NCBI GenBank assembly: GCA_002633005.1
Contig: NMRA01000232.1
Span: forward strand, 62,001 to 126,000
Source of the DNA: Phoronis australis
Lineage: Eukaryota; Animalia; Phoronida
DNA: 64,000 bases
Direction: 5' to 3'
Part shown: one piece after another, positions 28,144 through 52,900 of the stretch
How positions within the stretch are numbered: the stretch's first letter is position 1
Layout of the letters: every line of letters starts with the position of its first letter
Notes under the pieces: generated by a model
Database searches by the model: none
What the model was told of the DNA's origin: nothing
The model's input: the letters and a program-made list of their open reading frames with translations, nothing else
Made by a program: the position numbers and the translations under genes

Positions 28144-30471
28144 GTTTGCGCGCAATGCAAGACTATGTTGATAAATTATTGATGTAAGTTTTTACGCTCG
28201 CGGCACGCGCGCGGTTTTGCAACGCTTCGTCTTGCAAAAAATATTCTCCACTCTATGTCCGCTCATACTGTTCGAGTAATGCAGGGTGTAGTATATATCA
28301 ACATGCTATCAAAACAGGTCCAGTCGCCTCCACCACAATCGCATTTGTGAGGTTTGAAACCAACTTATTTACAGAAAGGGAAAGCCGATAATTGGTATGT
28401 TATATGATTACATCTTCCACTTGGTAATCGATGGAACGAATCCATGTAAGACCATGTCAATGTTTCCGAAAATTCCGATGTAAAATGGAAGGCAAAATCT
28501 ACTTTGACGAACTTTGAAGTTTTGAATACTCATAATAAAGAACAGTAAAACAATAGTTTCTGAAAGCAGGCCCATTCTCATCGTGGGGTATGTGATTTGT
28601 TTCTTTTGGATGTTACTCGTAACCATAAAGACGTCTATCCTCATCTAATTGTGTTTAGCAGTCCAGGTTAAATCAAAGTACAAGATGTGAAACCATGAAA
28701 ACCCTGTGACGACGTCGACAGTAGGAGGGAGAGTTTTTAATTATATAAAATAAATGAATTGCTTGACTGGGTGGAGAGCAAAGGACACAGGGAGCTAGTA
28801 GGTGACTACTGGCGTGTTGAATAACTAGGGCAACAACTAGGAAAAAAACAATGTTGAACAAAACTGGCACATTGTTAATTCTAATTGAACCGGATTCGAA
28901 GCTTTTGAAGTTAAAAGGTTTTAGTTAAATATCTATTAGAAATCGCGAGTTTTCATCAATTTTGTTTGTTTCAACAAACATGTCTATTTTAGTTGGCAAA
29001 ATAAAATTTGACAAAAATAGATGTTCTAACGGCTACAGTTTTGCTGAAGACACCGATTACATGTGTCGTAAATGGAATTAGAGAATTCTATCTATTTGGA
29101 GATATTTTATAAACGGATCAACGATCGTGATTCATTTTGAAAAATCGTATACAAAATTTAATTTGAATATAGCCTAAACCTTCTCATTCGGTCAAAAATC
29201 TTTAACTGGACACTCGTCGTGTTTCACCTATTTGTTTCATATTGACGGCGTCCAGGGCATTCTCGTCTTCATTCTGTTGCATCGTAGTAAGAAACGTATT
29301 TCATGACCTCCCAAAATATAATCAAATGTCAACGTTTTCATTAATTGTTTCAGCGTGCGATGTATTGACGTAGTGACAGCAACTTACGTACTCAATACAT
29401 CTATGGTGAAATTGATTGAGCACGTTCAAATTAATGCACTTTTACATTGGTATCAAACTAACTGTACAGTTTTAAACGTTCAAAAAAATTTCAAGATCAA
29501 AAACACTGTTTTATGAGCATCAAGAACGCACATGGTCCCGATGCCAGGATTTTGGGGTTAATCTTGGCAACATTCTACTATGAAAAATATTTTTAAAAAA
29601 GTTACGTGAAATTCCCATCTTGAGGTTCTAAAAGTTCCACTCAACTGATTCAACTCCCCTGAGGTTAGAATCTCTTTTGCACACGGTGACGGCCAGAGAC
29701 AGGGGGTGCTACACTCTCCAAAGGCACCTTTCTGGCCTCTCAGATGAGCGAGAGCCCTGCTAAAATGTTGAACTGAACCAAAAGTTAGAAAGGCTCGTGA
29801 GTATTGATGAACGATGCTGTCAAAGACTTTAGAAAGATCCACAAAATGGCAATTGAGTTGTCTAAATATTTCGCTATTTGTATTAGGCACCAACTATTTC
29901 AAAAGAGAGTTTGGTTCATAAGCCATAGCGAGATTTATAGGAAAAGTTACAATGGAAAAATAAGTGTAAACTTGACCACATCCCCAAAACTCTGTCTTTC
30001 GTAGAATAGAAATGACTTTGTGGTGGAGGGTAGAAAGTTATAAGTTATAATTTAACTTAGCTTTAGTGTACGAGGATTATGTTGACATTTGGGCACAAAA
30101 ATGCAGAAACAGGTGCCAGCAAAAAGCAGTATATTTAACACCATGATAACAATAAAAACACGAAAATATCACAGCACACGAACTTTGAAAGTTCATATCG
30201 ATACAAAAGCAAGCACTTGTTGTAGAAAATGACATCAAAACTGAATTTCAACATTCGTGGACATGTGCCAGTAAAATTAAAGTATAAAATGAAATGTATA
30301 CACTGTTTTGAATTTTATAAGCTCACCATTGTCAAGAGTAGACAGGCACTGATTTACTTCTACAAGTTTTAATTAGCGGTTTCATTTTGTCAGTAGCATT
30401 TAGCACTTGATTAATACGACTTATGAGGTAAGGCACGTGATCATCTATATTACCATAGACTATTGAACAGG

Positions 30472-30766
30472 TGTTGTCTATAATCTATGATATCATTTAA
30501 TAACAGAAAACTTCTAGACATTAACATTTTGGTAGGTTCCATCATACCAGTAACTGCGACCATAGCTTGGAACATTCTAGAGCACATTGGCAGAACAATA
30601 GGGTAGATTCTAGAAGATTCTAACATGTGCCTGAACTAGTGAAAAGCTCCAGAACACGTATAAATAGTTAAGCAGGAACTGCAAAGTCAGCAGCTTCAGG
30701 ATCAGCGGCTATTTGTTACGTGAGGCAGTTATAGAGACAGCAAGTTACTGACACACAAGTCTAACA
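30472..30766 (+). mobile_element. Probable solo LTR
   Basis: TGTTG...TAACA termini, internal TATAAATA, repeated TTCTAGA motifs, near-identical flanks AACAGG/AGCAGG. Confidence 0.5.
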
Positions 30767-31892
30767 AGCAGGTTAACATTTCAAAACGAGTTATAACAGC
30801 AATCCATATAATTATAAAACGTTAGTATAACAAATAAATAAATAAATAAAATGAGCCCCCGCAATGATTAATACAGTACCTCTGACCACAAAGCTTTTTA
30901 ACTCGGACACGACCAAGCACAACCTTGCACTGGATATTCATGGAAAATTAGCTCAACTTAACTGCTTGCACTTAGGACCCAGATTCTAATCTGGGGCTGT
31001 GACTATCCTAAGCTCCAACATGACATGTTCGGTTCTACTTCAGTACAAACTTATCAAAGATATGGTGTATAATATCTCCGAACTTAAAGTGGCTGTCATT
31101 TTGAGCTCGGGTACTCTTTGGCTTATGTGGAATGTCAAATCCGCATTGATGGCCTTTAAAGCCACGAGTTCGAGATCAACATGTACATACTTGGACTAGC
31201 AACTTGCCTGTGCAAATTGCGCCACACACACTAATAGATAATCATCAACAGAAAATATCAAAAATGATTTGGAGTTCGAACTTGAGTTTGTAAATTATAA
31301 CCGAGCTCCGATTATGAAACAGAATAGCATAGCAGCGTAAATATAAATTGCATAGCTAAATAGCGTCATCCCTATCTTACTTTGGAAAAAAACAGGAATG
31401 AAAATGTCGCGGCCCACTTTAGTTCCCGAATCGCAGCAAATTTTTTATGAAAATTGTTGAACAGAATACGTTCCCAGAAAAGAGCTGTATTAAAGTTAAT
31501 ACATAAAAAGAGGAGTTCCATGCGCACAGGGAATGTTTCTGTAGCAACGGCTTGACAATGTGAAGTTCATGGAAATAATGTTTAAAAATACGAACATGTT
31601 ATATCGAGTAAAAATGTACCACAACTAATACAAAGATATGTAGACGGTTAGTCTAAAGCTCACTCACAAGTGAAAAAAAACAAAAGTTTCAGGATTACAC
31701 TTCATGTTTTCTTTTAACACTGCGAGTCAGTGTTCGTGAGTATACACGGCTACATGGCATTGGACCGACTGAAGTTCTTTTAACTCCGACAGCACGTTCT
31801 GCCACCGCGAACTCAGTAAATTCCTGTAGTTCGAGACAGCGCTCAGCTTGGTCCATGCTGTGGTGTTTCATGAGGACTAATCGTCGGAGAAA

Positions 31893-31950
31893 TCACATCA
31901 ACGTACACGTCTTCGATGACCGTTTCTGTTTTTGACTGGATTGGTCCTCC
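31893..31950 (-). CDS. NOS: NOS probable last coding exon ending in a CaaX box
   Basis: tttattttcag acceptor; phase 2 gives [21 protein letters not shown]. Confidence 0.7.
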
Positions 31951-34900
31951 CTGAAAATAAAAGTAAGTTTTCGCTCACGGAAAACACTTTACGAATCGTT
32001 GTGAATTCATTACAACGCATATACGAAACGTGCCTCGATATTTAGCTTCCAAAACAGGAAATGAATTAAAGTCCTTCTCTCACGCGTTGTTAACCCTTAC
32101 TACATGGTTAGAAGATGTTATAAGGATCCAACAAGTACCTACCCCATAACTAATACACGATCCCCGTACTCGAAAACAGTTTAAATGAACGCGCCACTCA
32201 CGATTCGCACCCGAAGAAACACCGCCATTTTGAACTTGCCGCGAACCCGGAAGTACAATTCATTCAGGAACCCAGGCCGAGAAAACGCCGTCAGTGCGAC
32301 TGGAGCAGTGCCTGTACTGTTACCAGCCAGCAAACGGGGATAAAAAAAAATCGACAGCGCGCCTTAATTTTGATAAAATCAAACTACGGACAATTTTATG
32401 GAATTTGCTGAAGAAATGTGGCGAATAAATTTTGACAGAAATTATTTTGCCAGACTCGGGACCGCAGCCTATCGGACCCGGTGCGGATCGAGACCAGACA
32501 CTGGCGAACGGTAAATGCATGCGGTTGCAAGCTGTTTTGTCGAAGTAAAATGGTCAAATGATAAATGCTGCATATATTCAAGGGTAGTTTCAGACACTTG
32601 CATGAAATTACGGGCTGGTTAGTCCTGTGTCACACTGCCGCGGCAGACCTTAGTTAGCCTCAGTCACCAGCTACCAGTGAAGACTATAGTCAAAATACAG
32701 CTTGTTAGTAGGCCTACACAGCTTTGCGCCAAGACTACCCTTAGGCCTAACTGGTCGCTGGCCACAAACACAAAAAACACGAAAATTGAACAAAGTTTCT
32801 TTTTTTGTAGCAACGTTTGTCAAAATGTATCAACGTTAAATCTTCACAAATTATAAAGTAGCCGATTGAACATGCCTTTCAGTTAAGCAAAACTCGACAT
32901 TGTAGGTGCCGCCAGAAATGAGACGAAGTCCAACGGGAATTGTGAGCACATTTTATCACTTAATGAGTAACAACTGCGATGCTGAAATTTGGTGAACACT
33001 GCTACTGAAATCGTGCAGAATAGTAAGTAAGATATGTCTAACTAAATTCCACCGTAATTTGTTGGCGAAAACAATTTACACAAAGTTTTAAACTTGTAAC
33101 TCATCCCGCTGTCCTCCAATACATATGGCCGACGCGATCCAAACAAAGTGACCCAAATTTCGCCACAAAACTTGCAATAACTTTACAGTACTTGCCCCGA
33201 TTTTGATACTTTTTCGATTTTTACTGAGTAGAATGTACTACCTTTCCGATCATAGCAAAGTACTTTTTCAAAACGAGGAAAAAAATAAAACCGAAAAAAA
33301 TTGGTTCGACCCATATTAGTTCCTAGGTTCGACCCGCCTACGTAAGGAACTAAACACCAATGCTATTTTAACATACTAAGTACGCGTAACATTCCACAAA
33401 AAAATCAACGACCACTAACTACAAACTATAAATACACTACATATGCAAACGAATCACGATATATTACTAATAAAACAAAATAATGAAGACTTTTCGAGCA
33501 AGCCATAGCACATTCAGTTACAAGGAAAAAATGGCGGCGTTCAGGACAAGTTCCTGAACTGATGAGCCGGAAATGTGGGTCTGGAAATAACCGATGATAA
33601 TCGGTAATCATACGCTCAGAGAGAAGGGTCAAATACTGTTAAAAATCGCTTTTGGCAAGAAAGGCGAAAAGAATGTAAAGATAGGGTGTCGAAAATAAGA
33701 ATTTATGTAGTAAGTATTTTCGGATACTGGAACCACATGGGCAGTTTGCAAGAAGGACTTTAAGCCACTGCGGCTCATACGATTGGTCTCATAATATGCA
33801 TGCCAGGACTTGGTTTCCATTACCAACAAGATTATCAAAACCATCAACAACTAAAAATGCTTCTTTGGAGGCTTGGCTAACCCTAAAATTGCGAATTCGA
33901 AAATAGCGCGTGCACGCATTTCGTGTATCACGGTATCATTCGGCAACATCCGAGGATCACAGGAGGGGGTAATACTTTTAAACATCAAAGTGCTTTTTGG
34001 TTTAGAATTCAGCATTGGCAAATAAGCATCAGGAAATGTTCCTATAAACTTCGAACGGCCTTAGGAAGGCTGGAATGGTAGCCGGTTAGGGTTTTGGATG
34101 AGTTCAGTAGCTGTCTAGCGGTTAGAAAAATCTAGCCAAAATCACGTATTCACATTTAAAATACACGGCGTAATTCTGCTTTTCTTGCGAAGTGCTAGCG
34201 TTATTGAACTCTACCTCAGTTATCGACTACAACACTCACGACCTGCATGCGTACACTTCTTCTCAAAGAGCTTTTATAACGTTGACTTCAAACGTTTTAG
34301 AATCATTTTTTATTTCGATTCTAAATGTTTATTGCGCATGCGTACAGCCCTGTCGGTGAGTTTACAGTTGCATGGCCTTGAAGTCCCAGTTAAGTCAAGA
34401 TTCGGCGTAAATATACTTACACCACCTTGTACTTGTTAGTCAGAACCCCGAACACGTCCTCGTGGTAGCGCTTGGTCGTCTAAAATACATAAACAGTGTA
34501 CACGCAATAAATTGGAAGAAATGGTACATCGCTGTAACCATGGTAAGTACATGCAAATATCAACATCACGTGTATGCCTAAGCCTACTGTCCAATCAAAG
34601 TGGTGTATTTAAAGTGACAATAAACCCATGCATTCCGACAAAAACAACTTTTGATTTTTTGCTTCAGACTAGGCCTATTGTGTTACTTGTCAGGGCGGGT
34701 TAGTAAGACAAGGCAATACGGCGGTCAGGAGAGTTCCAGGCTGTTTCAATTCCAACAAAGAATAAGAAAAAGTTGCTTTGAAAGAACAAGTACATCTGTG
34801 AACAAAGTATGAGGTTATTAACCTAAGAATATGGTTCATAGCGGATTTAAGAGCAATGTTGTCTTCAGTTTCTCAATATCAAAGGACTACAACTGGCGAA

Positions 34901-37900
34901 ACGTTTTTGGTACGCCTCTTGCAACACTAAGACAGAACCGAAAATGTATAGAATATGTTGCAGTCATCGATTTTAAATTGAAAGTTAGTCGAAAACTATC
35001 TTCTCATGACGCAGCAGTAACTGACAAGTAAAAATGATCAACGCTGTGAGGGACTCTCACATTAGAGGGGTTGAGAGAGGCGTGCCCGCGCTACCTTGGT
35101 TACAAATACGTTTCCCTTCTGCACAATTCATCACCTCAGGGTAAGAACATTTGTACTCTGAGAGATAATTTTTGTTTTGTGCCGGGCTATCAGTGTCATT
35201 GTCACGAGAGTCTAGCAAAAGAGGTTTTGTCTCGCGAGGTTCTTTTCGCCAGCCCAGCCTGTCCATCATGCAACAGAAAGTCCTTTGGCAGATCAAGACA
35301 GACATAGAACAATAAAACTTTCAACATTACGACAGACATACTTTCATGACGTCGATGTATGTCTCCGCTTTCTGCGTCGTAAATCCTTTGTGTGTCCGCA
35401 AGATCTCAACAATTGAGATGTGCACATCTTCAGCAAGCTGAACACCTCCACACACATAGACGTGGCCTTTCCGCTCAACAATTTTTTCAGCAACATTTTT
35501 TCCATCTTCTTCCAAGATTTGCTGTACGTATTTCTTAAATCAAATAATATACAAGTTACAAATAACTCGGTGAACTTTAAAAGTCGGAAACATTTCAGGA
35601 CAAAAAAAATAATGAGTAAGTTAGGATTCACATTTAATGGCCAAGACAAGATTTTCAGTGTCACAGGTAAGTATCAGTTGTCACAGCTTTCTGTTGCTTT
35701 TTCCATGTATAAGTCAAATCAATTTTGCTTTTGTCACATATGCATGACATAATGTTTGTCAGCGATAACGGTTGAATGCAATGATTTTACTCTTTAGGAA
35801 AAAGGATCTACCACTTGATGCGGCATAAAATAACCGTAAACACAACAACACAAACTACTAACAGATTACATTCATGTGTGATGAGTATTGTCTCAGGATG
35901 ATCAACGAAAATTAGTTTTACACGGAGTTGAGTACATCAGTTACTTTTAAGCACATTATTGTAAAGCAGGCTATGATTCCGACATTTATGTTTGATCAAC
36001 AGTATCCTATAGGCTGTATTTAAATTACTGAGGTGTTAACTTCATCCAGCCACTTTAAGTTATTCAATTGCTTGACTCCTCGTCATCACCATCTCCATCT
36101 TCTTTTTTCACCTTTTTAAACAAATCTCCCATTTCTCATCGACAAACAAAAAATAACATGACAGACTAGATTTTGAAAACTCACAAAATGTTACAGAATC
36201 TCAGGCAAGCAAGTTTTGTCACAGATTGTCAACATGTCACAGGGTATCAATAAGAGTGCCAGCAGTCTTAATGTGGATTAAATATGCTTGAAACAATCTA
36301 GTCATGCATCAAATTTTACTTCGAACAAGTAGGTGAGAATCACACTGAATACATCTTATTACCGTGTTTCATCTTTAATTTCAACAATTGCTTTTTTGTC
36401 TGACGAGATATTATACGGATTGTATTGACGACCGCGGATAGGCCACGCCTACCATAACTATCGTTGCGAGGCCTCACAAGCCCAATATGGTGGAAGTCGT
36501 ATAGCGTACTACAGCATCAAGTTCTCTGCATTTCTGTTTTATAACATTTCACTGAAACTGATTCCACATATGGAGCGTGAGCAGCAAACTAGGTTAATAA
36601 CGTTCTGTGTGCCATCAACACCCACAGTACCTCGTTTAATTGTCAATAGACATTATGTACTATTAAATATTTTTTAAACGCCATGAAGATGAATTTCTTT
36701 CACATTGTGCTTGATCATCACCGATGCACGATAACACTCCATGCTTATCCAGGCGTATATTTATCTAACCACCGTTGAAGTCTACTTCGTGTTTTTATCG
36801 GCGACAGGCACTTTTCCTTTTTTGTTCTCTAAATATCGTTGGCGTACATTACACGTGCCCCAAGCGCACAATAAAGCCACCTTTACGCTTTCGCTCACAA
36901 CCAATCATTGTGGGACAAAGATGACAGACAACATGCTGCCGCGAGATGATTGGCTGGAATTCAGCTTGATTGGCATGTCGGCACCATACGTTCTCTTGTG
37001 TTTAATATGCTATGTTTATTGCTCTTCTACCAGAAAGTTGAGCGCTAATAATAAGCCCAATTATCATACTGGAAATGAAATTTGCAGTAAATGTACTAAC
37101 TATCAAAATAATGAAGAAAGTAGTAATTTAACAATGTTAACGATAAGGCACGATGAAGGCGACAACGACAACGGAAACCATGGTGACAGCAATCGTGAAA
37201 ATGATATTCGAACAATACTGCTATCATTCACAATATAATAATACCAATAGCCATAAAATATGTAAAAATTATAACGATGAACACCTTTTTGATACCAGGC
37301 TCTCTTGAGTAGGCCACGTGAACATTTTGTAAAGCTCCTGCATTTTTTGCATTCTCCATCTCTTCTTCGTATAAATGAGTTTCCTTGGTGCGGCATCCAA
37401 ATATTAGAGTCGTGTCATATATCTCGTTGCCAATTCGACCTTATGAAAACAAGTGTACAAATAAGAGAAGCAGAACATAGATTGCATACATAAAAACATC
37501 TTGGTGAACGTAACTTTAGAGCGTTCTCAAACTTAAATTTGAATGCATATCGTATTTATAAAATTCCAAAGTAATTCAATGAATGAGGTTGATGTTGCTT
37601 GTGACGTTAATCGTCGGCGTTTGACTTGTGCGCCCGTGCGCAAAAGGCAAAAAAATTCAGAAAAGTCAAAAGTTCTGTCAAAACACCCCAATTTTTCACA
37701 AAAGACATGGTGTCGACTTCGTGTACAAGTATTCAAAGTGTGTAGACGGATCTTTAGAAGCCAAATCTGTGCCGAAACTCGCTGCCGATCAAAACAAACA
37801 TTCCAGCAAATTTAAGAAAGTGACGAAATGCTCTGTGACTACACAATGTCCATGCTTTCTTAGCGTTGTGAAAATTTGTCTTCTGAGATCGCACATTTGT

Positions 37901-40900
37901 TGTATCCTTTACATGTTGTTCTCTCTTGTTATTATTTGTCAGAGTATACAAAACTGGCAGTATTTATGCTACGGTTCCACACCAAGACGAATGACAAGAT
38001 AGAAGAATGTGGCTATCATTTCCAAGGTTATGAAAGACGTTCTCGACTAATTTGTGCATTTAGTCAAATATCTACAAAAATATAGATTTTAACCATTAGT
38101 AAAAGTATATTTTATCTAAAAGTAGAAAGCCTGTAGAGATAGACGTTTGACCATATACTAGTCATCCATTATTTGGCCATGTAACTATGTCTTTTAGTAA
38201 AACTTACCAAAAAGAAAGGTACATAAACAGCAAAAATGACGAAATTTTCTTTATTATAAATGCTCAAGTTGAAATCTCGAAAACGCTGTTACAGTTTTCT
38301 AAATTACCGTTTCATGAATACCATAAAAGCACTATTTTTCGTAGCCATTCATGAGAAAGTGAAACGTTTTTAAAAACCTTACCTAACAACGTTTTAAAAA
38401 GCAGTGCATAAATCATGAAATCTGAAAATTTCATATGGGTCCAATCAACATTTTTGAGATACGATGCTCCGAAGTTTGAGGAGACAGTGTGGCGTGATGG
38501 TTTCAAACTCAAACTCCCGTTTGCGAGGCCGTGGTTCAAATCTTGGCTTTATTTGTAAACAACCAAGTATTGCATAAAGGCCTCTCCTGCTCCACTGAGC
38601 TCGGTCTCAAAGATTATATGCGAAGGAGTGGATGAGAACCTGGATATATTTCAAAGGTGATTTCTGGAGATGCGCTAAAAAGTTTTCTAGATTTAAAGAT
38701 TTCTCTAAGGTGTTACAGTGTATAACCTTCAATTAAAATAACCAGGTTACCTTTCAAGTTGTGAGCAAGGTGCTGCCAAAATCCCCTGATAGGTGCTATA
38801 CCAGAACCAACAGCTAAGAAGATGATTGGAACTGTTAATTCCGAGGGCATATTGAAGTCAGGTGAGCTGAAAACAGGGAAGGATGATGAAAATAGGGAGT
38901 AAACAACATGCGGTAGTAGTATGATTAAACTAAACATTTTTGATAAAAATATTGCCTCAAACCTGAAAAGGTCTGCAAAACACTCTTAGTGGATATTTTT
39001 TCTTTTTCATTACTACACAGCTTACCTCCATCTCTCGTTTCTGCACGATATCACTTTTTAGTAAAGTCAACTTCGGAGAGTATATTTAATTCAACTAGTG
39101 CACAAAGTTATACGTGGTCAAATGATTACAAATTACATAACCCGCTTTGTATTCACAGACAATCCATTTTTAAATTAAACTTACAACACAGTTTTCTTTC
39201 TTCCTGCAAAAATAACAGCTTTTGCTGAAAGAAAGTACTTACGGTTTAACGAAGATGGGTATTTTCTCGCCAATGGACACTTTTTTAAGAAAGTTTGTGG
39301 CGACGCCCTGTCGATGAGGCCTTGGCGAATCTATGATGGAGAAATTGATGGATGTATTCCAGCCTTTGGTGACAAAATTAAGTGAACAAGAACTAGCTTG
39401 TCCTCCCAGCACTTTAAATATCTTCAGATTTATCGTTCTAGTACTGAATTTTGAATGTTTACATTTGGTTTTTCTTGTCCAGATTTTGATTCTTTTCCTT
39501 TAGTACGTTTAACAAGTGCTTTCATTGTTAGTGAAAGTCAATGTTTAACTTATTTTCTCGTAAATATTGTACTATTTCAAACCAGGATGACTTCTGTATT
39601 GACTTGCTTTTCAAGAGGACTTTCGCAAGAAACACGATACAATACAAGGTAATACAATACAATACAATACACTGAAACATAATACACTACAATACAATAC
39701 AATACAATGCAATACAATACAATACAATACAATAAAAAAGAATACACAGTTGATATTAAAACACCATCCTCAGCTGAAAAAAAACACTGGCTATCTTGCT
39801 AAGCCCAACAACAAGTAAAGATACACAGTCAGCTACAGGAGAGTTACAATAGACTAGACTAACAATGACAACCTGTGGTGTGCCAGTGGCCTATTGAGAC
39901 TGGGCTTACACCAATTAATATCTGGGGCCTCACGACTTTTCAGCTTCCTTGTTGTTTCTGCTTGGTCTGTTATAGCAAAGTCACTGAAACAACTTTGTTA
40001 ATAACAATGTTTGGAGCTCTGTAGATGAATATTAATATGTGAACTTCTGTCAAAATTTAGATATTCCCTGGTCCAAGTTTTCAAATGGTGAATAGTTTCA
40101 CCAATGTAACTGGAGTCACATCCAGCACAGATAAACGTGTATACTACCCTGGACAGTAGACCCATAGGAATTTTGTCCTTGGTAATAATTCACCAATTTG
40201 TTGAGTTTTCGTTGAGCAATCTTTGCGTAAAAACCAGCATTGGGTGTTTTAAAATACCAATTTATGTGTGTTGGGTGTGGCTGCACTTTCAACTAATTTG
40301 AAAACCCAGAGCAGGGAAGTTCTAAATTCTGACAAAATTTCACATATTAAAACTCATGTGCAGAGCTCCAATCATTGTTACGAGCAATGCTCTTTCAATG
40401 ACTTTGCTATAATAGACCAAGCAGAAGCAACAAGGGAGCTGAAAATTCGTTAGGCTCTACATATCAACTGGAGTAAGCCCAGTCCCAATAGACACTTTAG
40501 GTTGTCATTGTTAGTCTAGTCTACTGTTACTCCCTGTAACTGACCGTGTCTGTATATCATCATTTGTTGATGGACCTATATTTAGTACTGTGGCCACTGT
40601 TTTTGCTTCTGGGGTTGTTGTTCTAATAAACATGTCAAGCCGATTTAAATCCATCAATGTTCTTAACATCATATACTACTACTTGCTATCATGGAAAACA
40701 ATACAATGCAATGCAATTCAATAAAATTCAAATCAAAATAAACAAGTCTTGGAAATAAATGATAATGATAATAACATACAAGACAAGTTATAAATAAGGG
40801 CATTTCAATATTGAATTACATAATAATTAGAGTAGCAGAGTGCTACGATTGGATTTGCATGTGAAGAAGCATGACAAAGGGCTTGACACATGCGTTGCAT

Positions 40901-43900
40901 TGTGGGTAAATACATGTACCTTCGAATGAGAGTGGTTGTGTGCTATTTCAGGACCGACATATTGTAGTTGAGCATTCCATGCGTTATGCGACAGAAAAAT
41001 GTTGATGCCTGTAAATATTATATGGTGAAAACTTCATACATTTATTTATGTCTCATTTAATTATTCAACGTACTTGGAACGTCGTAGCTGACTACGGAGA
41101 ATGTCAGTGTCATTTCATTTGGCGTGACTCTCGGAGACGAGCTGACAGAATACAGTCGAGGCTGAAGGACGGGTAACTGGGTGAGGAGAAGTGTAGGGTC
41201 AAGGATGAGGGACGGGAATTCGACCAACACATCGACAACTGATGACGCTTTTTGTTGTCTCCATCGCGTGAACTGGGATTTACCCTGCAACAAACCACGT
41301 AAATTTTATAAACCCTATTCTACACAACGTGTACATTTGGAAGTCAGTGAAATCTCGGAATTGGCAGTTTGAAGATTTTGCAAATGTGATCTTACTAAAA
41401 GTTATACCGTGTTACGCGCCTTTAGGCCCCTAGGCGGGGTTATATCAAAATAACGCTTTTGTTCGCGACCTCTTTTACCCAAGTGGTTCGCATATAAGCC
41501 CAGGTAATGTCCCCTGCATAGGCTCAAACATTGATTTGCATGTAGGCGCACCCATTTTGACTACCGCTGTGCCTACTAATGGAAATTTTTTACGTCTGAT
41601 AGGTAGCTTTGGCGTATTTTCAAGAAATTTGGTTGGGGAATAGTTTTGTATTACCGTAGTGCCGCGCAGACGTCCATGGGCACTTCTGTAACATAGTCTT
41701 TGAAGAGTAGTTTAATATACCAGTTTTTATTGCACTGCCTATTTGGCAGTTGTGCTTGTGTTTCATGTTTAAATTTTACGGACTGGGAAGTAGAAAAGGA
41801 GAACAAGAATGCGATGACGAATCTCTGGGAAATGCTGATAATACGTGAGAGTGTGAACTGAATTATACCCTAACGATATGCTCTTCACCGAGCGGAAAAG
41901 GCAATTCACTACAAACTGGAAAGATTGCAACAGGATTCCATGTACATACCTCGAAACAGATATGACAACGTATTAGGTTGCTTTCACTTGACTTTCTTTG
42001 CTCTTACCTTGGACAACACCTTTAGTTTCGATTTCTCTGAGGAATTTCTCGTCAACAGAGCAAGGCAGCCTAAGAACTCCGGTGTAGGAGGAGTAGTGAT
42101 GTCGAGATACTGAGTCAAGGCAGTGCGTAAACTGCAGGCCGGCAGCCTAGTGCTTTCTAGAATTAAATGATAAATTACGTGCGTCTTTCAGAAAGTTCCT
42201 AAAATTACGATTTTGCGAAGTCAGCATGTTCATTTTTTCAAGCAGGTCGTTCAGTGTGTCGCATCCTCGTGAAAAACATGCGACGGCCTAATGAATGCGA
42301 CGTAAGCAGTTCCTCAACAGAATTAACGGGAGACAGTTCCAAGACATCACAGTGGCGGATCTAGGATATCACAAAGGGGGGGCAACATTTTGTCTGGCTG
42401 TAAGCATTTGCGCAAATCACGATTGTAGATGCGCATAGCACCGAATGGGGGGAGGTCGGCAGGGGACAAACCCCCTCCCGCCCAGGAAATTTTCCTGTTC
42501 TTTCCTCTAAAAATCAAGCATTTTCCTTGATTCCTGAAGTACTATACAAAAAGGGCAAGAAAAAAAAAAAAAAAAAAAACACGAAGAACAACGTGTCAAG
42601 CAGGAAAAACTGCAAATTAATACCAGCGACTCGAACTCACCAACTGGCGGATAGAGCGCGCGTGCTTTACCACTACACCACCACGACTTAACTACAAATC
42701 TTACTACAAAGAGACCTACTTGTTTATAGTCCACAGCGTTTGGGCGCGAAACCTACTTCTTTTTGCAATGCACGTTTTATATTTTGTGCAATCGATTCTT
42801 AACAAACTTGTTGTATTTTTAATGCCCAAAAGACCAAATCCGTTTTTCGTTTTGGCAATAATGACGGGATTGCTTTGGAAATCGTCTCAAGTTAAGGTTT
42901 GACAAAGAGAGAATTATGAGTTTCTGAGTGATGATCAGTAAGGCTTCGATTAAAATGCACATCTTACCAGCAGCTTCTGTTTTTTCATCGTCACTACATT
43001 TTCTTTAAAAAATGAAGTAAAATTTCTTCCTTGCACAGTGGAGCAGACGACGGAAACGGAGTCGTAGTGCGCAGCGCCACTACCGGTCGCCTGGGATATC
43101 GCGGGAGAGCCTATACTTAGCCATAGTTCCGTTACGAATGCGCCGTGTTCCGAATTTGACACTTGAAATTGGATCTGAGCCCCCCCCCAAACACTAAAAC
43201 TGCACACATTTAAATCTTGTTTCATCCGTATAATTTTAATTACCGAGGTAAATTAATAAACTCAACATTTCCCAACGCTCTTGCTGTTTTATTTTTTTTC
43301 GGCAGCCAAGGGGGGGGGGGGCGGGCCCCCTGCCCCCCCTAAATCCGCCAATGGGTCATAAGGGCCTTTCATACTAACGTTGACGCGTCGATGGTTTGGG
43401 GAGTTGCGGTCAGTATGAACGTTTAACTCCGGTCCTGGATCGAAGTTAACAGCTCCAGTTAACGTCGCAGTTGACAGGTGGATTTAACAGTGCAGCGTCG
43501 ACGCTGCGGTGCAGAATGAACGATTAACTTCGGTCCAATCGAAGTTATCACCAGATGCCACAGTTACCGTCAACAATTACAGGGAAGTGCTGTCACTAAT
43601 AGCTGCATTTGCTCTAATAGCAACCAATCGATTTAAAAATAAGTTTAATGTCAATTAGCACAACCAATCGATTTAAAAATAAGTTTAATGTCAATAAGCA
43701 CATGTAAATGTTCCCAAATTGTCACATTGAAAAAATCTTAGCGGGCAGCGCTACCTTGCGATAACTGTGATAACGACAGCGTCACGTCCCATTTACTTCG
43801 ATGTTCATTAGCTACCAAAGCCAATATGAACGGTCCAGTTAAAGGAAAAGTCAACCTTTTTCATGTCATTTTTAACAAAAATAAGGTTCTTTGATTGCAA

Positions 43901-46900
43901 TTTTTCGTAATTTAATTAATTATTCGTCCTTTACTCCGGAAGTGACGTTTTGGGAGGCAAGAATTTCGCGCCAATTGTTTTCCTATAGTGTAACTGTGAC
44001 TATAGAGCTGTCAAGTCAGTCATTGTTATACCTCGGCAGTGACAAGTTCGGTCGTCGTTTGCTTTTGCTTTCGAGTCAGTCAACGTGCCACTGACACTGT
44101 TGCTGCGTACCAGGATGTACTCATTATCGCCCAGAGCATGTAAGCAGCCCTGCAGCGATGTTGAGTAGAGGGAGTGAATACAGGGCCCGTTCGACACCAA
44201 GACAGTTCGTCGTCCAATGAATAGATCGGTGAGCTAAACTTTGATAAGTTTATTGAGGACTTGTTTACAGTATTGGAGTTATTTAGAAGGTGCCTGGTGT
44301 GTGGCAAGGGAGTCACACGGCGGGATGTAAACAGTTTGTGTGCTCAAGTCACCATCCAGTGTGAGTATGTCGCGGGACACTCGGGCAAGTGGGGCAATTG
44401 TTCCTCTGTCGGTGAGACGACAATGAGTGCAGTTCGGTACACAGCAACAGTGTGGCATGTTGACTGACTCGTAAACAAACTACTACCGAACTAATCACAA
44501 CAGAGGTAGAACAATGACTGACTCGGCAGCTCTCACAGTCAGACTATATGAAAAGAAATTGGCGCGAAATACTTGCCTCCCAAAACGTCACTTCCTGAGT
44601 AAAGGACGAGTAATTGTTTAAATTACAAAAAGCTGTAATTAAATAAAAAACATGTCTGTGATAATCAACGAACCTTATTTTTGCAAAAAGGTTGCCTTCG
44701 CCTTTAACTGCGCTGTATACGTCGACGCTCCGCTCAGACCGGAGTTGAGTCAATATGAAAGGGCCTATACTGGTAGTTTGGTTGGATGAACATTCAGTGA
44801 GTATGGATTATAGAAAAATACAGGCTTTAACTCCAAGAAATGTTTTAAATGATATTACTCATTGATTGAGAAAACTCACTTGAAGAAGAACGCAGAACAG
44901 GCAAAAGTAAAACATATGATACTTACGAAAAGTCTTTTGGGTGGCTTGGTTGTCGTTTATGTCAATTTGTGGCAACTCAACTATAACCGGTATATCACTA
45001 TCAGCATCAGCGGCCAACCGTTTCAGGATCTCGGCCACCATCTCCGGGTCATTTTTTGGAAATATCGCTACATGGTCTCCCGGCTGGTAGGATACATGGT
45101 CGTCCAGTTTCAAACAAATGGACATCTTCATATCACTAAGTTAAAATGGAAAAAGAAAATTGGAAATTTTTGAGTATTTTCATTAAATTTTAGGTTGCAA
45201 ATTAGAGATGATAAACTCAAAATCATGCTACTGTGTTAGAAATATCAAGGTCTGCCATGGAAAAAGTAGGTAGTTTTTCAAGTCATCATCTCAGGCCTCA
45301 GACTGTAGGCTCTTTGACAATAATAATTTCACAGTTGGGGAACTACATCCACAAAAAGTAAAAATTTACCTTTGGCTTTGCGGTGGGTGCAAATCCAACT
45401 TGTTTACCACTTTTGCTTCAGAGATGCGGTGTTGATAATGGTGAACAGTTTCCAGTCCTAAAATTTGTAAAAAATGTGCTGCTAAAAGGTGTGAGTATGT
45501 TAGGTTAGAGTGGACACAATTCCGATTTTATATTCCGGAATTTATTACCAGGACGTTGATTCGATTTCATACCCTTGAATTATTTTGTTGTTGCGCCGAA
45601 AATACCGAGTCTAGCCCAGAGAGGACAATTTCGAATTCATCTACACATATATCCCGAATATCTCTAACAAATTTATGGGATGACACAGAAATATGTTCAC
45701 AAATACTTTGAAATATGGATACCAGAAAATGATTTACTGTATTCCAGGAGTCCCAAAGTTTTGCCTGTAAGACACAGAAGGCCAAATCAAACACAATTAA
45801 AATTTTCTACAGGCATAAAATACAAAACCAGTTCTTTTAAATGCTTTTCACCATGACCAATCACATATGTTGAAAATCTTCGATAACTGCACAAATGATG
45901 CGAAAACTCGAAAATTTTTGTTCCCTATACACTAAGAGTGGTACTGTTTCTAACTTCCACATACTCAAAACAAAATTTGGGATTCTTGAAAACATAATCA
46001 GTTTCAGTAAAACCGTATCTTGGGATTCATACATGTATTTAAGACTATTTTTGTTAAAGCTTTGTGCCAGAAGTTGACTGTGTGTTTGTTTAAAAGGTAG
46101 CTATGCTTTGTGATTGTACGTGGATGGAGAAAGAATGGCTAAATCTCTGACACTTTGGAGCACCCTGCATTCCAAATTTGCACTCTAAAAAATAACATAC
46201 ATGGGATATTAAATACATTCTATACTCATTAATTATTATGTCAGTGCCCCGACAATTGATCCACACAAGAGATGTAACAGCGGAATAAAATCAAATTAAT
46301 TTTCCCCATTAAAATTCAATTCTAATTTGTCAATACTATTGGGGCACCAATTCCAAAATAAATGGGGATAAAAATTCCGTAATTGTGTCTGCTCTAATCC
46401 ACCATAAACGTGCGTAGTAGATTCACTAATCAAAAAGTTCCGAGATCCCTCCATCAAAGATTAGTTGGTCCCAATTGAGGATCTATATTTTTGAAAGCCT
46501 CGAACATGATCACCTGAGGGCCGATGAGGTGGGTGGGGGGTGGGGGGCAATTGTCACTCCATGTGCCACGCGATTACATTTACGTTATTCAATTATAAAA
46601 GGATCAAATCGATAGAATGTGTAACCGCGTACATGTACGCCTTTCTGCTCATCTCTCGAGGTGTCTATTTTTTCTCAAACATTTTCGGAAGCTTAAGTAC
46701 TTCCGCGTTCAACAATGCCAAAATACAAAACAAAGCACGGGACTAATGATATAACGAACCTTTGACGACCATTTCTTCGTTTTTTGCCGTAATTAAATGA
46801 TATTTGCCCAGAGTCCACGTGTCTGTTGCAGAGTTACTGTTAATGACGTCATTTATTTCACGTTTCGTCTGAATATTGAACACTTTGCATGATGTCTGGA

Positions 46901-49900
46901 AATGAATTAAACAAAGAGCTAAGTGTTGCGTCTCATCTAACCACATGTACTGATGCACTGAACATAACTAGGAGAACACATAGGAGAGGTACATGGAAAA
47001 TCACTGGTTGAGAAAGGAAATTATGTCAGTCACAGAAATACATTTTCTCATAGTTGGAATTAAGCATCATTAACGAGAGCAACGCAGAACGTTGAAATGC
47101 GCCCACGAATGCATCACAAATGGTGTGCTTTTAGGGTTGCTTATTTGTGCCATAAAAATGGCCACTAGATGGTGCAAAAACATACAATCCATCCAAAAAC
47201 GAAAACATGTAATTGCTTCTTTAATAGAAAGCTATACACCAAATTTCATAGAAATCCGAGAAACAAAGGAAAACATAATAAAATGAAATTGCCACTAGGG
47301 GCACAGTGTTCATTGGATCCGCCTGAAAGTCGTCATTGTCTGTTGTTATCTTCACACAAATACACTTACAAAATTTAATAAAGATCCTGCAGTGGGTTTA
47401 GGAGATACATCTATGGGCACAAAGCTACCACTAGGAGGCGCCAGAGAAGTCAAAGTCGCTATCATCAACGGCCGTCCTCTTCACACAAAACATTTACGCC
47501 AATTTTCTACACCATCCTTTGAATGATTTGGTTGATAGAGAGGTAGAAGCCAAAAAACAGACTCGAAAACAGTAACAATGGCCACTAGGTGGCGCAAGGT
47601 ACTTTGATTCCATCCGAAAACGGGAGTATATCAAATAAACACAGAAAAATCAGGAACCCCAACTGGGAATCGAACCACAGGTCTCTAGATTGCCGGTCTA
47701 GTGCTCTTACCACTGAGCTACTGAGGACTCGACATGTGCGCAATTACTGTTTACAGCCAACTGTTATGTCATACATCCCATGAGCGGCGTTTCGCCTTTT
47801 TCGCACGGGATTTGGACAAATATGTAATATACAATCAGCAAATTACCAGTATGTGTTAATTAGATATAGTAAATATATAGACGCTGAGGTTGGCCAGTAG
47901 TGAAATATATCAAATAAACACAGAAAAATCAGGAACCCCAACTGGGAATCGAACCACAGGTCTGTAGATTGCCGGTCTAGTGCTCTTACCACTGTCCAAA
48001 TCCCGTGCGAAAAAGGCAAAACGCCGCTCATGGGATGTGTGACATAACAGTTGGCTGTAAACAGTAATTGCGCAGATATCGGGTCCTCAATAGTGTCCGT
48101 TCGATCCGCCTGAAAGTCGTCGTCTGTTATCTTCATATAAATTCACTTACTAAATTTAATAAAGATCCTGCAGTGGGTTTTGGATATACGGCAATGGGCG
48201 AAAAACAAAACAAAACTACCACTAGGAGGCGCCACAGTAGCCAGTCACCATCATCAAACGTCCCCTTCACACTGAAAACATATACGCCAATTATCAAAAC
48301 CATCCCTAGAATGATTTGATTGATCGAGGGGTGGACGCCAAAAACAAGATTCGAAAACAGCAAAAATGGCCACTAGGTGGCGCAAAATACCTCGATTCCA
48401 TCCAAAAACAGGATGATAGCGTCATCTCACTAATAGATGCCTATAATTCAAATTTTTATGAAAATTTATTGAGGACCTTTGAAGATACAGACTGGTAAAG
48501 GTAAAAATTGCCCCTAGGGGACACACCAGTTGTCAGATCCGTTGTCAACATCATATCAATACACTTAAGTAAAGATCCTGCAAACGGTTTAGGAGATACA
48601 GCCATGGGCGCAAATAAAAAACAAAACAGCCACTAGGAGGCGCCACAGTAGTCGAACTAGTCGGAAAATCATCGTCAGCTGTCCACTTCCTATTAAAAAC
48701 ACATATGCCAATTTTCACACTTATCCTGAAAGCGGTTTGCTTGATAGACGAGTGGACACCAAAAACATACTTTAAAACAGTAAAAATGGCCAATAGATGG
48801 CGCAAACTAGGTCGAATCCATCTGAAAAGTCACCTCATTAAAAGATGCCACAAAAATGAAATTAAGTTGAGGACCTTTGAACGTACAAGGGTAAACGTAA
48901 AAAAAATAAAATTGCCACTAGGTGTCAGATCCGTCCGAAAGTCATCGTCGTCTGTTGTCAACATTATATAAATACACTTACTAAATTTAGTAAAGATCCT
49001 TCGAACGGTTTAGGAGATACAGCCATAGGCGTAAAAAAACTGCCACTAGGAGGCGCCACAGTAGTCGCAATCATCGAAAAATCATCGTCAGCCGTCCACG
49101 TTATAGTAAGAACATACGTGCCAATTTTCACAATCATCCTTTGAGCGGTTTCGTTAATTGAGGAGTGGACGCAAAAAACAGACTCGAAAACAGTAAAAAT
49201 GGCCACTAGGTGGCGCAAACTACGTTGAATCCATCCGAAAACGGCAGGACAGCGTTATCTCACTAATAGGTGCCTATATACCAAATTTTACGAAAATCCG
49301 TTAAGGACTTTTGAACATACAGAGGTAAACGTAAAAAATTAAAATTGCCACTAGGGGGCACACCGGTAGTTGGATCCGTCCGAAAGTTCGTTCATGCCGT
49401 CCCATCCACAGAAGGAACACATGTGCAAAATTTCATGAACATACGTCAAGGCGTTTTGGAGATAGAGCAGCGGACGCCGGACGCCGGACACCGGACGCCG
49501 AAAGCCGGTCGCCGGACGGTCGGACTGACGGACGGAGATGACGGCATAATGCGTTCACATATAAATATGTGGGCGCATAATAAATGCACTTACAAAATTT
49601 TGTAAAGATGCTGCAAACGGTTTAGGAGATATAGCCATAGGTGCAAAAAAAAACAAAACTGCCACTAGGAGGCGCCACAGTAGTTGAAGTCGGAAAATAA
49701 TCGTCAACCGTCCTCTTCATAGACCCTATTCACGCCGACAGGAGGTGCGTTCCAAAACGAGGCTCGCTACGATAGCTCTGGTGGCTTATCCGCGTAATTG
49801 TACTCCGCGTTGCTCGAACAGCTAGAAAAAATATGGACACTCTGTTTTACAATCCCTAAGGACGTTGGGATCCGGAAGCGTTGGGTCCTTGCCATACGCC

Positions 49901-52900
49901 GCGACGAAGAAAAATATGTCCGTGTAAAATTTATAACTGTTTTCGAATCATAATTTGTCGCATCTCGGACTGGATGCCGCCATCAACGAGAACCGGATAA
50001 TCTTCGGCCAGCCAGGCTGTATTTTCATGACTATATGGGTTGAAGAGCGATGCATTTTTCTTTACAAAAAGGACAGGGCCCTCAATCCCTCAATTTTGGG
50101 GCCAAATATCGGCTCTATTCCCCTCTCAAAAATATTGAAAAATCACGCGAAATTTCCGGCCACGAGGCCTAAAAATCCCCTTTGTGATTGAAAATTTCGC
50201 TCCAACGGTTCAAATCACCTGTGATCACAGAGGTGACAATTTGAAAAAGTAAAAAATCATAGACGGATTTAGGGGGGCGGGGGGCAGGGGCGCGGCCCCC
50301 CCTTGACTGCCGCAAGCAAAATAAACCAGCAAAACGTGAAGCGGGAGCCGTGAGGAGACTTGTACTGAGTTCGAGCTAGGACCGGTAGCGGACAAGAGGG
50401 GGAAACACGTTCCGTTTTATTTTTTTAGTCCAACGACAGATTTCCTGAGCAGAAAGTATACATCCTCGGCGCCCGCAACTTCCGGGCCGCCTGCGTGCAT
50501 ACTGACAATCGCGCTTTGCCCGCTTGTCCGAGGATGTCGGGCCCCGGCTCCCTCACTAGGCTTATATGGTATCCTAGATCAGCCACTGAAAATGCTACTT
50601 GAGACAGAGCTATTAGAGCTTGCAAAAGGACGGGGTGCTATTGATGGTGATCGGTAGGTCAGTAGAGTTTTCACTGACCGGTCACTCGGTGAACAAACGT
50701 TCCCTTCTCAGAGGGCCGCACACACATGAGGCACCTTTCCCATCGGATATGAACGAGGCCTCTGAAGAAACATGATAACTATGCTTGTTCCAGGGGGATC
50801 CAGGACTTTGAGTTGGGGGGGGGGNNNNNNNNNNNNNNNNNNNNNNNNNNGGGGGGGGGGGCTGGGGCATAGCCCCTTGGCTCCCCTCTAAATCCACCAC
50901 TGTGTTCTATCCAGTTAACTCAAATTGAGCTCTAAAACGAGGTTATGCTTTGGACGAAAGAATTACATAGGTGTTTTAATTTTAAAATTCAACTTGGTCG
51001 AGATTGATATTTGAAAAATATAACACATGGAATAGACGTAATTATTAAAACCAAGAAAGCTGAATTGGTGGTCATATAATTTTTATTTTCAATTGCGAGC
51101 CTAGTTTTTTATCGTAATCAAAATATATATTTAATAACATCAAGTATTATTTCAGATCAATGACAACTCAACTGTTAGTCCCGGTAGTGCCTACCTCACC
51201 AGGACCTAGGCTATGCTTGAATCTACTGTAATAGGCCTACTCTTGATCAACAAATTAAACCAGATGAGACTAATTGCACATGACAGCAAAATGCTATGAG
51301 CCACCACTGTCGAATATGTCTTCAACTCGTCAACAATAGGACCAGATGACCTGGTTCGTGTAGAAAGCATTTTTATCAAAAATTTATTGGATGAAACGTA
51401 ACCCTGCATTCAGCATGATACCTAATCCGTAACACTACGATCGCAGCAATTTGGTCATGTTTACTTTTCATGTTTCGAACCTAGTTTTCCTGAAAAAACC
51501 TATATCCTTTCGTCAGACAACTCTTTGGTGCATTGACTTGTTCTTTAACTGTATATTTCTACGTCTCTGGGGTTAATTATTGACATTTTTAAGATTTAAT
51601 ATTCAGGTTGGTCTCCAAAGACCGGCCATTTAACTCACGCAATGTAAATTTCCGCTTTGTTTATCGCAGTGGGCCTCGCTTTGGATTTTAATGTCCGCCG
51701 CGTGAATAGAGTCTATAGCAAGAACATACATGCCAATTTTCACAATAATGCTTAGAGCGGTTTGGTTGACATAGGGGTGCACGTAAAAAAAGACTCGAAA
51801 ACAGTAAAATTGGCCACTAGGTGGCGCAAACTATGTCGAATCCATCCGAAAACGGGAGGATACTGGCACTAATAGATACCTATATCCCAAATTTTATGAA
51901 AATACGTTGAGGACCTTTAAAGATACATAGGTAAACGTAAAAAACTAATATGGCCACTAAGGGGCACACCGGTAGACGGATCCGTCTGAAAGTTCACTCA
52001 TGCCGTCCCATCCAAGCAAGGAACACATGTGCAAAATTTCATGAACATACGTTAATCGGTTTTGGAGATGGAGCAGCGGACGCCGGACACCGGACGGACG
52101 CCGCCCGGACGGACGGACGGACGGACCGGGACGGACGGACACAGATGACAGCATAATGCGTCCACATATAAATATGTGGGCGCATAAAAACGGAAAATCA
52201 CATTCTGGCATATTCAGGATGCCATTTTCCATAAAAAAAGAATCCGTCGCTTTTGATTTGACAAGGATGAGAAAGAGAATTATGCGTCGAACCAGGAAGT
52301 CACTGTAATGACTCCCTGGTCGACCTGTTATGAACACCAGTATTTACAGTGTTCAAAGACCAGAAATCACGTTTCAGACATACTGCACGTTCCCTCGCTC
52401 TCTGTCCAACCCTTCCTCCTTTCCTCTCTCCCTCAATCCCCCCTCCCTCTCTCCCTCAATCCCCCATCCCTCTTTCCCTCCCTTCCCTCTCATCACGTGC
52501 ACTGTTTAAGAACGCCCCCTACCGTGAATACGCTGCCGAGCCATTTCTTGAACATTTCAGCCTCAGCGTGAAGTTCGTCTCCGGTAGCTAGTGGCAATAT
52601 CTGCTGAGCATTTACAGCTTTGAATGTTTTGTCCACGTTTTTGCCAAACTTGCAAAAGTTTAGGTAAGCACTTGATCCCAAGGCAAAGATGGCATACTTG
52701 GTCTTTGGAAGACGCTTACTGAAAAAGAGGCGCATTAAATTGATAAATTGCAATTAAAAGAAATCTAAAACACAACAGGCGTGAGTTGAATTTTAGTTGA
52801 ACTCAGGTCGAGACTAGACGTCCACGTTGCACGCGTAAGGTAGAAGACTGGACACAATTCCATACATTTCAGAATTGATGCTCCCATAACATTAACCACT

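Follow-up and report, generated by a model that had tools for sequence, protein, structure and literature searches.

A candidate C-terminal prenyl anchor on an expressed, iNOS-like nitric oxide synthase of Phoronis australis

Nitric oxide (NO) acts at short range, and the location of the NO synthase (NOS) is a main control of NO signaling. In the 64,000-nucleotide stretch of Phoronis australis DNA analyzed here (the window), a NOS gene on the reverse strand appeared to end in a basic stretch followed by a CaaX box, and an earlier note on the sequence had put it forward as a candidate prenylated, membrane-anchored enzyme. Do transcripts use this ending, would farnesyltransferase accept such a box, and do comparable tails occur in other NOS? 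The reading favored here, with a probability of about 0.7, is that of an expressed, iNOS-like NOS with a predicted C-terminal farnesyl membrane anchor.

The NOS gene and its catalytic anatomy

The gene was modeled by tblastn with four NOS and by splice-site fitting. The model comprises 21 exons, from 63952 to 31893, with a single open frame of 1,018 codons and all 20 introns bounded by GT..AG; its 5′ end is beyond the window and, with it, the NOS N-terminus, where a PDZ domain or a myristoylation site may lie (Table 1). Pfam searches with single exons returned NO_synthase, Flavodoxin_1, and FAD_binding_1, and NAD_binding_1 just below the cut-off. As judged from the translated sequence, the oxygenase, FMN, FAD, and NADPH domains are thus joined in one frame, as is characteristic of metazoan NOS.

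Table 1. Features of the NOS locus, in positions of the window.
Feature	Position	Strand	Basis
NOS coding exons 1-20 (oxygenase, beginning shortly upstream of the heme Cys; calmodulin site; FMN, FAD, NADPH)	34421..63952	-	tblastn, splice fitting
Penultimate exon, RYHEDVFG (catalytic Asp, FAD-shielding Phe)	34421..34479	-	sequence; RNA reads across the joints on either side
In-frame TAA overlapping the splice donor (34419-34417), with AATAAA at 34333 and 34314; possible unspliced or ancestral end	34314..34419	-	sequence
Last intron, 2,470 nt, phase 2, GTAAGT..TTTCAG	31951..34420	-	joint read 3, 5, 2 times in X1-X3
Kolobok-like non-autonomous DNA transposon, ~1.7 kb, in the last NOS intron	32066..33763		TTAA-AG...CT-TTAA ends
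Alternative first exon in the transposon	32143..32260	-	spliced to 31950; extent upstream of the joint approximate
Coding portion of the last exon (18 residues plus stop)	31893..31950	-	joined frame; TGA at 31895-31893
Basic stretch KQKRSSK	31911..31931	-	4 K/R; D/E absent from the 12 positions preceding Cys
CaaX box CTLM	31896..31907	-	sequence; tetrapeptide identical to that of yeast Ste18
3′ UTR, ~1.8 kb, 3′ end approximate	30100..31892	-	continuous same-strand depth, no joints

The heme-ligand Cys (RCIGRIQW), the substrate Glu (WYMxTEI), and the pterin Arg are all conserved, as are the FMN and FAD motifs, the shielding Phe, and the residues in YSVSS, VCGG, and RYHEDVF that we take to be the Ser-Cys-Asp triad of the reductase. 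The shielding Phe corresponds to Phe1395 (PMC6451115). One residue (Gly) is deleted after the substrate Glu (EI), as it is in P0015, a homologue from the gastropod Gigantopelta aegis, and both NADPH motifs deviate (AVGSG for GPGTG and VCGG for VCGD). These deviations might suggest that the flavo-heme enzyme has diverged and is partly uncoupled, acting, for example, as a membrane source of superoxide, and that it is prenylated without being a normal NO synthase. The CaaX-bearing Gigantopelta paralogues described below deviate at the same places, and the Phoronis NOS forms the longest branch in the tree; yet fish iNOS carry similar changes (GTGSG/GAGSG and VCGG/VCGS), the CaaX-bearing NOS of the hemichordate Ptychodera flava has canonical NADPH motifs, and the Phoronis enzyme retains heme Cys, substrate Glu, pterin Arg, triad, and Phe in a frame that is open over its entire modeled length. 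An uncoupled enzyme is, therefore, considered very improbable. As an observation in its own right, the loss of Gly (57650-57630) and both NADPH-motif changes (38850-38800 and 35460, all on the reverse strand) parallel those of the Gigantopelta CaaX paralogues, despite the separation of the two in the tree.

The regulatory elements of constitutive NOS are absent from the model. The region of the FMN insert has 29 residues; vertebrate iNOS has 26 there, and most other, constitutive types have 60-104. No autoinhibitory insert is present in the FMN domain, and a sequence scan of intron 9, which is outside the pair of introns checked with RNA, yielded just two weak cryptic-exon candidates. The tail after the shielding Phe has 28 residues. 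It contains no RxRxxS/T phosphorylation site of the kind present in the tails of constitutive nNOS and eNOS, as the earlier note had stated, and Asn occupies the position of nNOS Arg1400 (Phe+5). The roles of Arg1400-type tail residues, and of the C-terminal tail in flavin electron flow, have been described (PMC6451115). By predicted anatomy, the enzyme is iNOS-like, and because it lacks the autoinhibitory insert, Arg1400, and an Akt site, it would be expected to work independently of calcium.

Several other features were recorded in the window. An ADAM10/17-like metalloprotease frame of 827 codons (28191-25711, reverse strand; HELGHAFGSPHD; Pfam Reprolysin and ADAM17_MPD) is intron-free throughout, has no obvious signal peptide in frame, and is expressed at a low level in RNA runs X1 and X2. 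A multi-exon gene for a TMTC-like O-mannosyltransferase (19460-3864, reverse strand) contains DUF1736 and TPR exons. On the forward strand, an open frame of 241 codons (1414-2136) is coiled-coil-like without a Pfam match above the cut-off, and 20084-21121 looks by eye like the terminal part of a LINE reverse transcriptase, again without a Pfam match. A cluster of related repeats occupies 47000-52300 in NOS intron 10, with 26 N at 50825-50850.

Splicing to the terminal exon

The RNA basis consisted of three raw-read runs (X1, X2, and X3) with the same species label, all from one study and each sampled to 18-19%. A further run, X4, is made of contigs, contains neither of the NOS joints considered here, and was not counted as evidence. 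The joint 31949/34420 (2,470 letters skipped, CT..AC) was read three, five, and two times in X1, X2, and X3, from three, four, and two distinct read starts and with shorter-side overhangs of 44-60 letters. One intron upstream, the NOS joint 34479/35342 was covered by exactly the same numbers of reads; together, the two represent the last two of the 20 introns of the model, to which the RNA check applies. The junction predicted from the sequence was thus found in all three raw-read runs (10 reads), and coordinates, phase, and translation of the last two exons, as given previously, agree with both sequence and model. Transcripts use exon 31950 and the predicted frame rather than another last exon, which confirms that the last-exon splice is real and expressed.

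The exon that starts at 31950 is terminal, ∼1.8 kb long, and on the NOS strand; the interval 30039-28408, which precedes the next gene, has zero depth. No variant was listed in the reads over the tail codons (mean depth 4.6, 3.6, and 18.6 in the three runs). The acceptor, TTTCAG before 31950, had been called strong, and it scored highest (13.7) of the 218 AG sites between 34360 and 30000 with a matrix from the gene's own acceptors. The same description of the donor stands in part. Exon 34479-34421 ends in phase 2 with GT, followed by GTAAGT, which is perfect on the intron side; once the exon side was scored, with a matrix built from the other 19 donors of the gene, it was the weakest of all 20 (0.9 vs 5.3-10.7), the weakness residing in the exon side.

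An ending at KYKVV-stop is suggested on paper by the in-frame TAA and AATAAA that follow the donor and by a promoter-like stretch, with its own donor, upstream of acceptor 31950. A gene that ends there, with exon 31950 assigned instead to one of the genes downstream (ADAM10/17-like or TMTC-like), is ruled out by the joint reads and the depth of the terminal exon. A different matter is whether both endings exist side by side, as in K-Ras4A/4B, with the CaaX isoform accompanied by an unspliced, soluble KYKVV form in other tissues or stages. The stop codon is intact, two AATAAA lie 85-105 nt downstream of it, the exon side of the donor is weak, and the RNA depth is low and from a single study. 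Against this, none of the 10 informative reads was unspliced, depth at 34220-34370 was zero in all three samples (X1-X3), and no read extended over the KYKVV-stop ending, so that we regard a second ending as quite unlikely; by our arithmetic, 0 of 10 would accommodate a minor share of up to about a quarter. The stop codon inside GTAAGT and the two AATAAA downstream give the impression that a new donor has superseded a former gene end.

The last intron also harbors an element that, by its terminal sequence, resembles Kolobok transposons, which are marked by TTAA target duplication, RR..YY termini, and short inverted repeats (PMC9587614). Its inverted ends are perfect over 13 nt (counting TTAA), and its repeat status is apparent from deep two-strand reads, 90-95% likeness, and loose read ends at its two edges (32066 and 33763). 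Elsewhere in this intron, another short repeat (34070-34200) likewise showed deep two-strand reads, with strand-switch joints. The transposon contains a promoter-like stretch, CAAAATGGCGG, at 32232-32222, with a facing copy near 33530, and a transcript starting within it is joined to the terminal exon: joint 31949/32142 was read 2, 0, and 15 times in X1, X2, and X3, and the consensus of loose-end reads at the alternative exon is the sequence of the NOS locus. In X3, these 15 reads compare with two for the NOS joint, and because the transposon-started transcript uses exon 31950, most of the terminal-exon depth in this run does not derive from NOS. An ATG at 32147, preceded by a 15-codon upstream ORF, shares the frame of the CaaX exon and opens a 20-residue ORF (Met-Gly plus all 18 residues that the terminal exon encodes). 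Most likely, this transcript is noise from the transposon promoter, and the 20-residue peptide is a prediction from the sequence.

The CaaX box and similar tails in other NOS

RNA and model together place a Cys four residues from the C-terminus encoded by the expressed, spliced transcript. That Cys-x-aliphatic-Met is a farnesyltransferase pattern, as the earlier note had stated, can be made more specific: CTLM is the box of the yeast G-gamma subunit Ste18 and, on a Ydj1 reporter, was fully farnesylated and behaved as cleaved by Rce1 (PMC5014548), and human farnesyltransferase also modifies it (PMC11152559). By analogy with the identical tetrapeptide on the yeast reporter, the enzyme would be expected to accept the aaX of the Phoronis NOS. 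The parallel drawn to the basic residues of K-Ras4B is partial: a stretch with four K/R and no acidic residue is present, but its signal is weaker. It amounts to +4, and after processing the final 16 residues would carry a net charge of +2, compared with +8 for the polybasic region of K-Ras4B and at least four basic residues in non-vertebrate Ras. Because of this difference, the plasma membrane as the specific target is a less secure prediction than attachment to membranes at large.

To what extent tails of this kind recur was examined among 131 NOS proteins of more than 900 residues, one search contributing the best 120 of 344 matches to a gastropod NOS query; the survey is weighted to molluscs and vertebrates, and the matches named include no cnidarian, tunicate, or bryozoan NOS. 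A Cys at position −4 was found in four of the 131, namely, P0015, P0133, P0170, and one bird iNOS, the last of which ends in CTSP and was excluded from the CaaX count. Among the matches listed, 128 of 131 had no usable box, and a basic stretch combined with a CaaX box ended 3 of the 56 NOS classed as non-vertebrate animal, in two lineages. These are the two Gigantopelta aegis proteins (XP_041348761.1 and XP_041349355.1), P0015 with the tail KRKNKKTSSRCSII and P0133 with KRKKTSSPCVII, and P0170 of Ptychodera flava (XP_070568864.1) with KTKTGRSSSLCLVM. All three tails belong to database models (RefSeq predictions) in one-member clusters, and Pfam found no PDZ domain in any of the three proteins. 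In the predicted fold of P0170, the last 20 residues form a low-confidence coil (pLDDT under 50) after a helix, which suggests that its tail may be reachable.

Additional searches added no further cases. Among 106 further cluster members, of which 70 reach the RxH motif, no new CaaX isoform was found (0/70 with a usable box). A homologue search with the 62-residue exon gave no matches, and a search of representatives gave 114, mostly exon fragments, in which three short ones with a Cys at −4 in a read-through intron were left uncounted. The alignment in the supplement to the placozoan NOS paper has no CaaX in the three human and five placozoan NOS it covers (PMC7400543). As a separate observation, P0013, an iNOS-like protein of Eleutherodactylus, ends in MYCCHELV, a Cys pair that is not a CaaX box and may be a palmitoylation site or a five-residue variant.

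Trees were built from 54 and 29 chosen rows with tails and N-termini removed, the second lacking the fungal outgroup. The Gigantopelta pair fell inside the gastropods beside a paralogue devoid of CaaX (100/100), Ptychodera grouped with echinoderms (99/98), and the Phoronis NOS, on the longest branch, stayed unplaced; its highest identity to any NOS found was 47%, and no close orthologue was found among them. A single ancient clade of all four CaaX NOS was rejected (AU test, p 9.2e-6), which argues for at least two gains. Uniting the Phoronis NOS with the Gigantopelta pair gave p 0.03, and uniting it with Ptychodera gave p 0.148, which is not rejected. As far as these alignments allow, the CaaX tail was gained independently at least twice, probably three times.

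Could the tail nevertheless be neutral, a downstream exon gained through a new donor over an old stop, with a CaaX box that is accidental and functionless, lipidated or not? NOS tails are poorly conserved and range from 9 to 153 residues; in the six frames of the window, a CaaX box by itself ends 16 of 2,726 stop-ended peptides; an older ending is suggested by the stop that the donor overlaps and by the two AATAAA; and oddities of this kind were selected by a scan out of many windows. On the other hand, CaaX and a basic stretch together end just 1 of the 2,726 peptides, presumably the NOS tail itself, and the same design is present in two other lineages, in one of which it was kept in two diverged paralogues. 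The Gigantopelta pair shares its last ∼12 residues, the tails of 123 and 88 residues being otherwise diverged, and their sister P0134 lacks the box; this conservation of the last dozen is the sole apparent sign of selection in the data. The chance of at least two CaaX events was calculated as 0.0002-0.0005 when a basic stretch was required and as 0.004-0.04 when it was not (two unshuffled backgrounds; both ranges with CaaX and basic criteria fixed post hoc, after the tails had been seen), and it was lower still on shuffled tails. A neutral tail is, thus, considered unlikely.

A predicted membrane anchor and known systems

The candidacy of this protein as a membrane-anchored NOS is, accordingly, upheld by the frame of the transcript, the literature on CTLM as a substrate, and the similar tails in two lineages. 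Splice, terminal exon, open frame, and conserved catalytic motifs are all observed. In the favored reading, farnesyltransferase would add a C15 lipid to the Cys of CTLM, Rce1 would remove TLM, and the Cys would then be methylated. Lipid and four basic residues together would bind acidic membranes, endomembrane or plasma membrane, at their cytosolic face, and the three Ser/Thr beside the Cys might provide a phospho-switch by analogy with K-Ras4B. The output of such a presumably calcium-independent enzyme would be set by place and amount, not by calcium, and NOS duplicates devoid of PDZ in a gastropod and in a hemichordate would have reached the same solution on their own. What speaks against an anchor is that its benefit for NO output is not obvious on an iNOS-like enzyme: in calcium-insensitive eNOS, location made no difference to NO output (PMC3260459), which, by analogy, disfavors a large effect. 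Proximity to targets, or a defense facing the membrane, would be the likelier benefit. A bolder proposal, that PDZ-less NOS acquired prenyl tails two or three times, that their docking to membranes gates FAD-to-FMN electron flow, with membrane binding itself acting as the switch of the enzyme, and that a farnesylated 20-residue micropeptide made from the transposon promoter competes with the enzyme, is, taken as a whole, considered unlikely.

If true, a natural C-terminal prenyl anchor would constitute a third targeting route of NOS beside PDZ and myristoyl/palmitoyl. It would bring a NOS under control of the mevalonate pathway and of prenyltransferases, and the lipid would sit on the very tail by which electron flow is regulated. 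As it recurs in unrelated lineages, such an anchor would offer a testable case of convergent evolution.

Among known NOS, vertebrate iNOS (NOS2) has the same domain order, and it too has no insert, no Arg1400 or Akt site, and a short tail. The Phoronis NOS is not a NOS2 orthologue in the tree, and the vertebrate iNOS examined all lack a usable CaaX box at their ends. Its insert-less anatomy is shared by other loop-less metazoan NOS, which include amphioxus NosB and NOS of ctenophores, sponges, and corals (PMC10342570, PMC7400543). Like eNOS and nNOS, it would be a membrane-directed NOS, but their signal is N-terminal, whereas here it is at the C-terminus, on the element that regulates electron flow. 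The statement that vertebrate NOS are targeted through the N-terminus agrees with published accounts of myristoyl/palmitoyl or PDZ targeting (PMC10342570, PMC2064233), and the placozoan NOS paper likewise names PDZ and N-terminal motifs (PMC7400543). The available text of the 2023 review of chordate NOS contains neither "prenyl" nor "farnesyl" (PMC10342570), and a literature search that covered titles and the starts of abstracts, with few subscription journals, returned no natural CaaX or prenylated NOS, although a prior remark may exist.

The closest counterparts in overall design are the predicted NOS of Gigantopelta and Ptychodera, which are PDZ-less and, like the Phoronis NOS, combine a basic stretch with a CaaX box that their database names leave unmentioned. 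They are 45-47% identical to the Phoronis NOS, have insert regions of 37, 54, and 65 residues, and do not form one clade with it. Their boxes include CSII and CVII, which presumably point to geranylgeranyl or mixed prenylation. The tail of K-Ras4B has in common with that of the Phoronis NOS the basic stretch, a Ser/Thr spacer, and a CaaX box ending in Met, and that of Ste18 has the identical tetrapeptide; in contrast to these two, the Phoronis NOS has no adjacent Cys suitable for palmitoylation, and the anchor would sit on an enzyme of ∼130 kD. A NOS with a CAAX signal also exists as an artificial protein, CAAX-eNOS, in which a K-Ras tail was reportedly fused to the C-terminus. This engineered enzyme (Zhang et al, 2006) is targeted to the plasma membrane and makes NO (PMC3260459), which indicates that NOS tolerates a CaaX signal. 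The NOS of P. australis is a genuine metazoan NOS whose tail is of a new kind, for which the literature searched gave the engineered CAAX-eNOS as the sole precedent, and would be a natural counterpart to that construct, which has been used to study effects of location.
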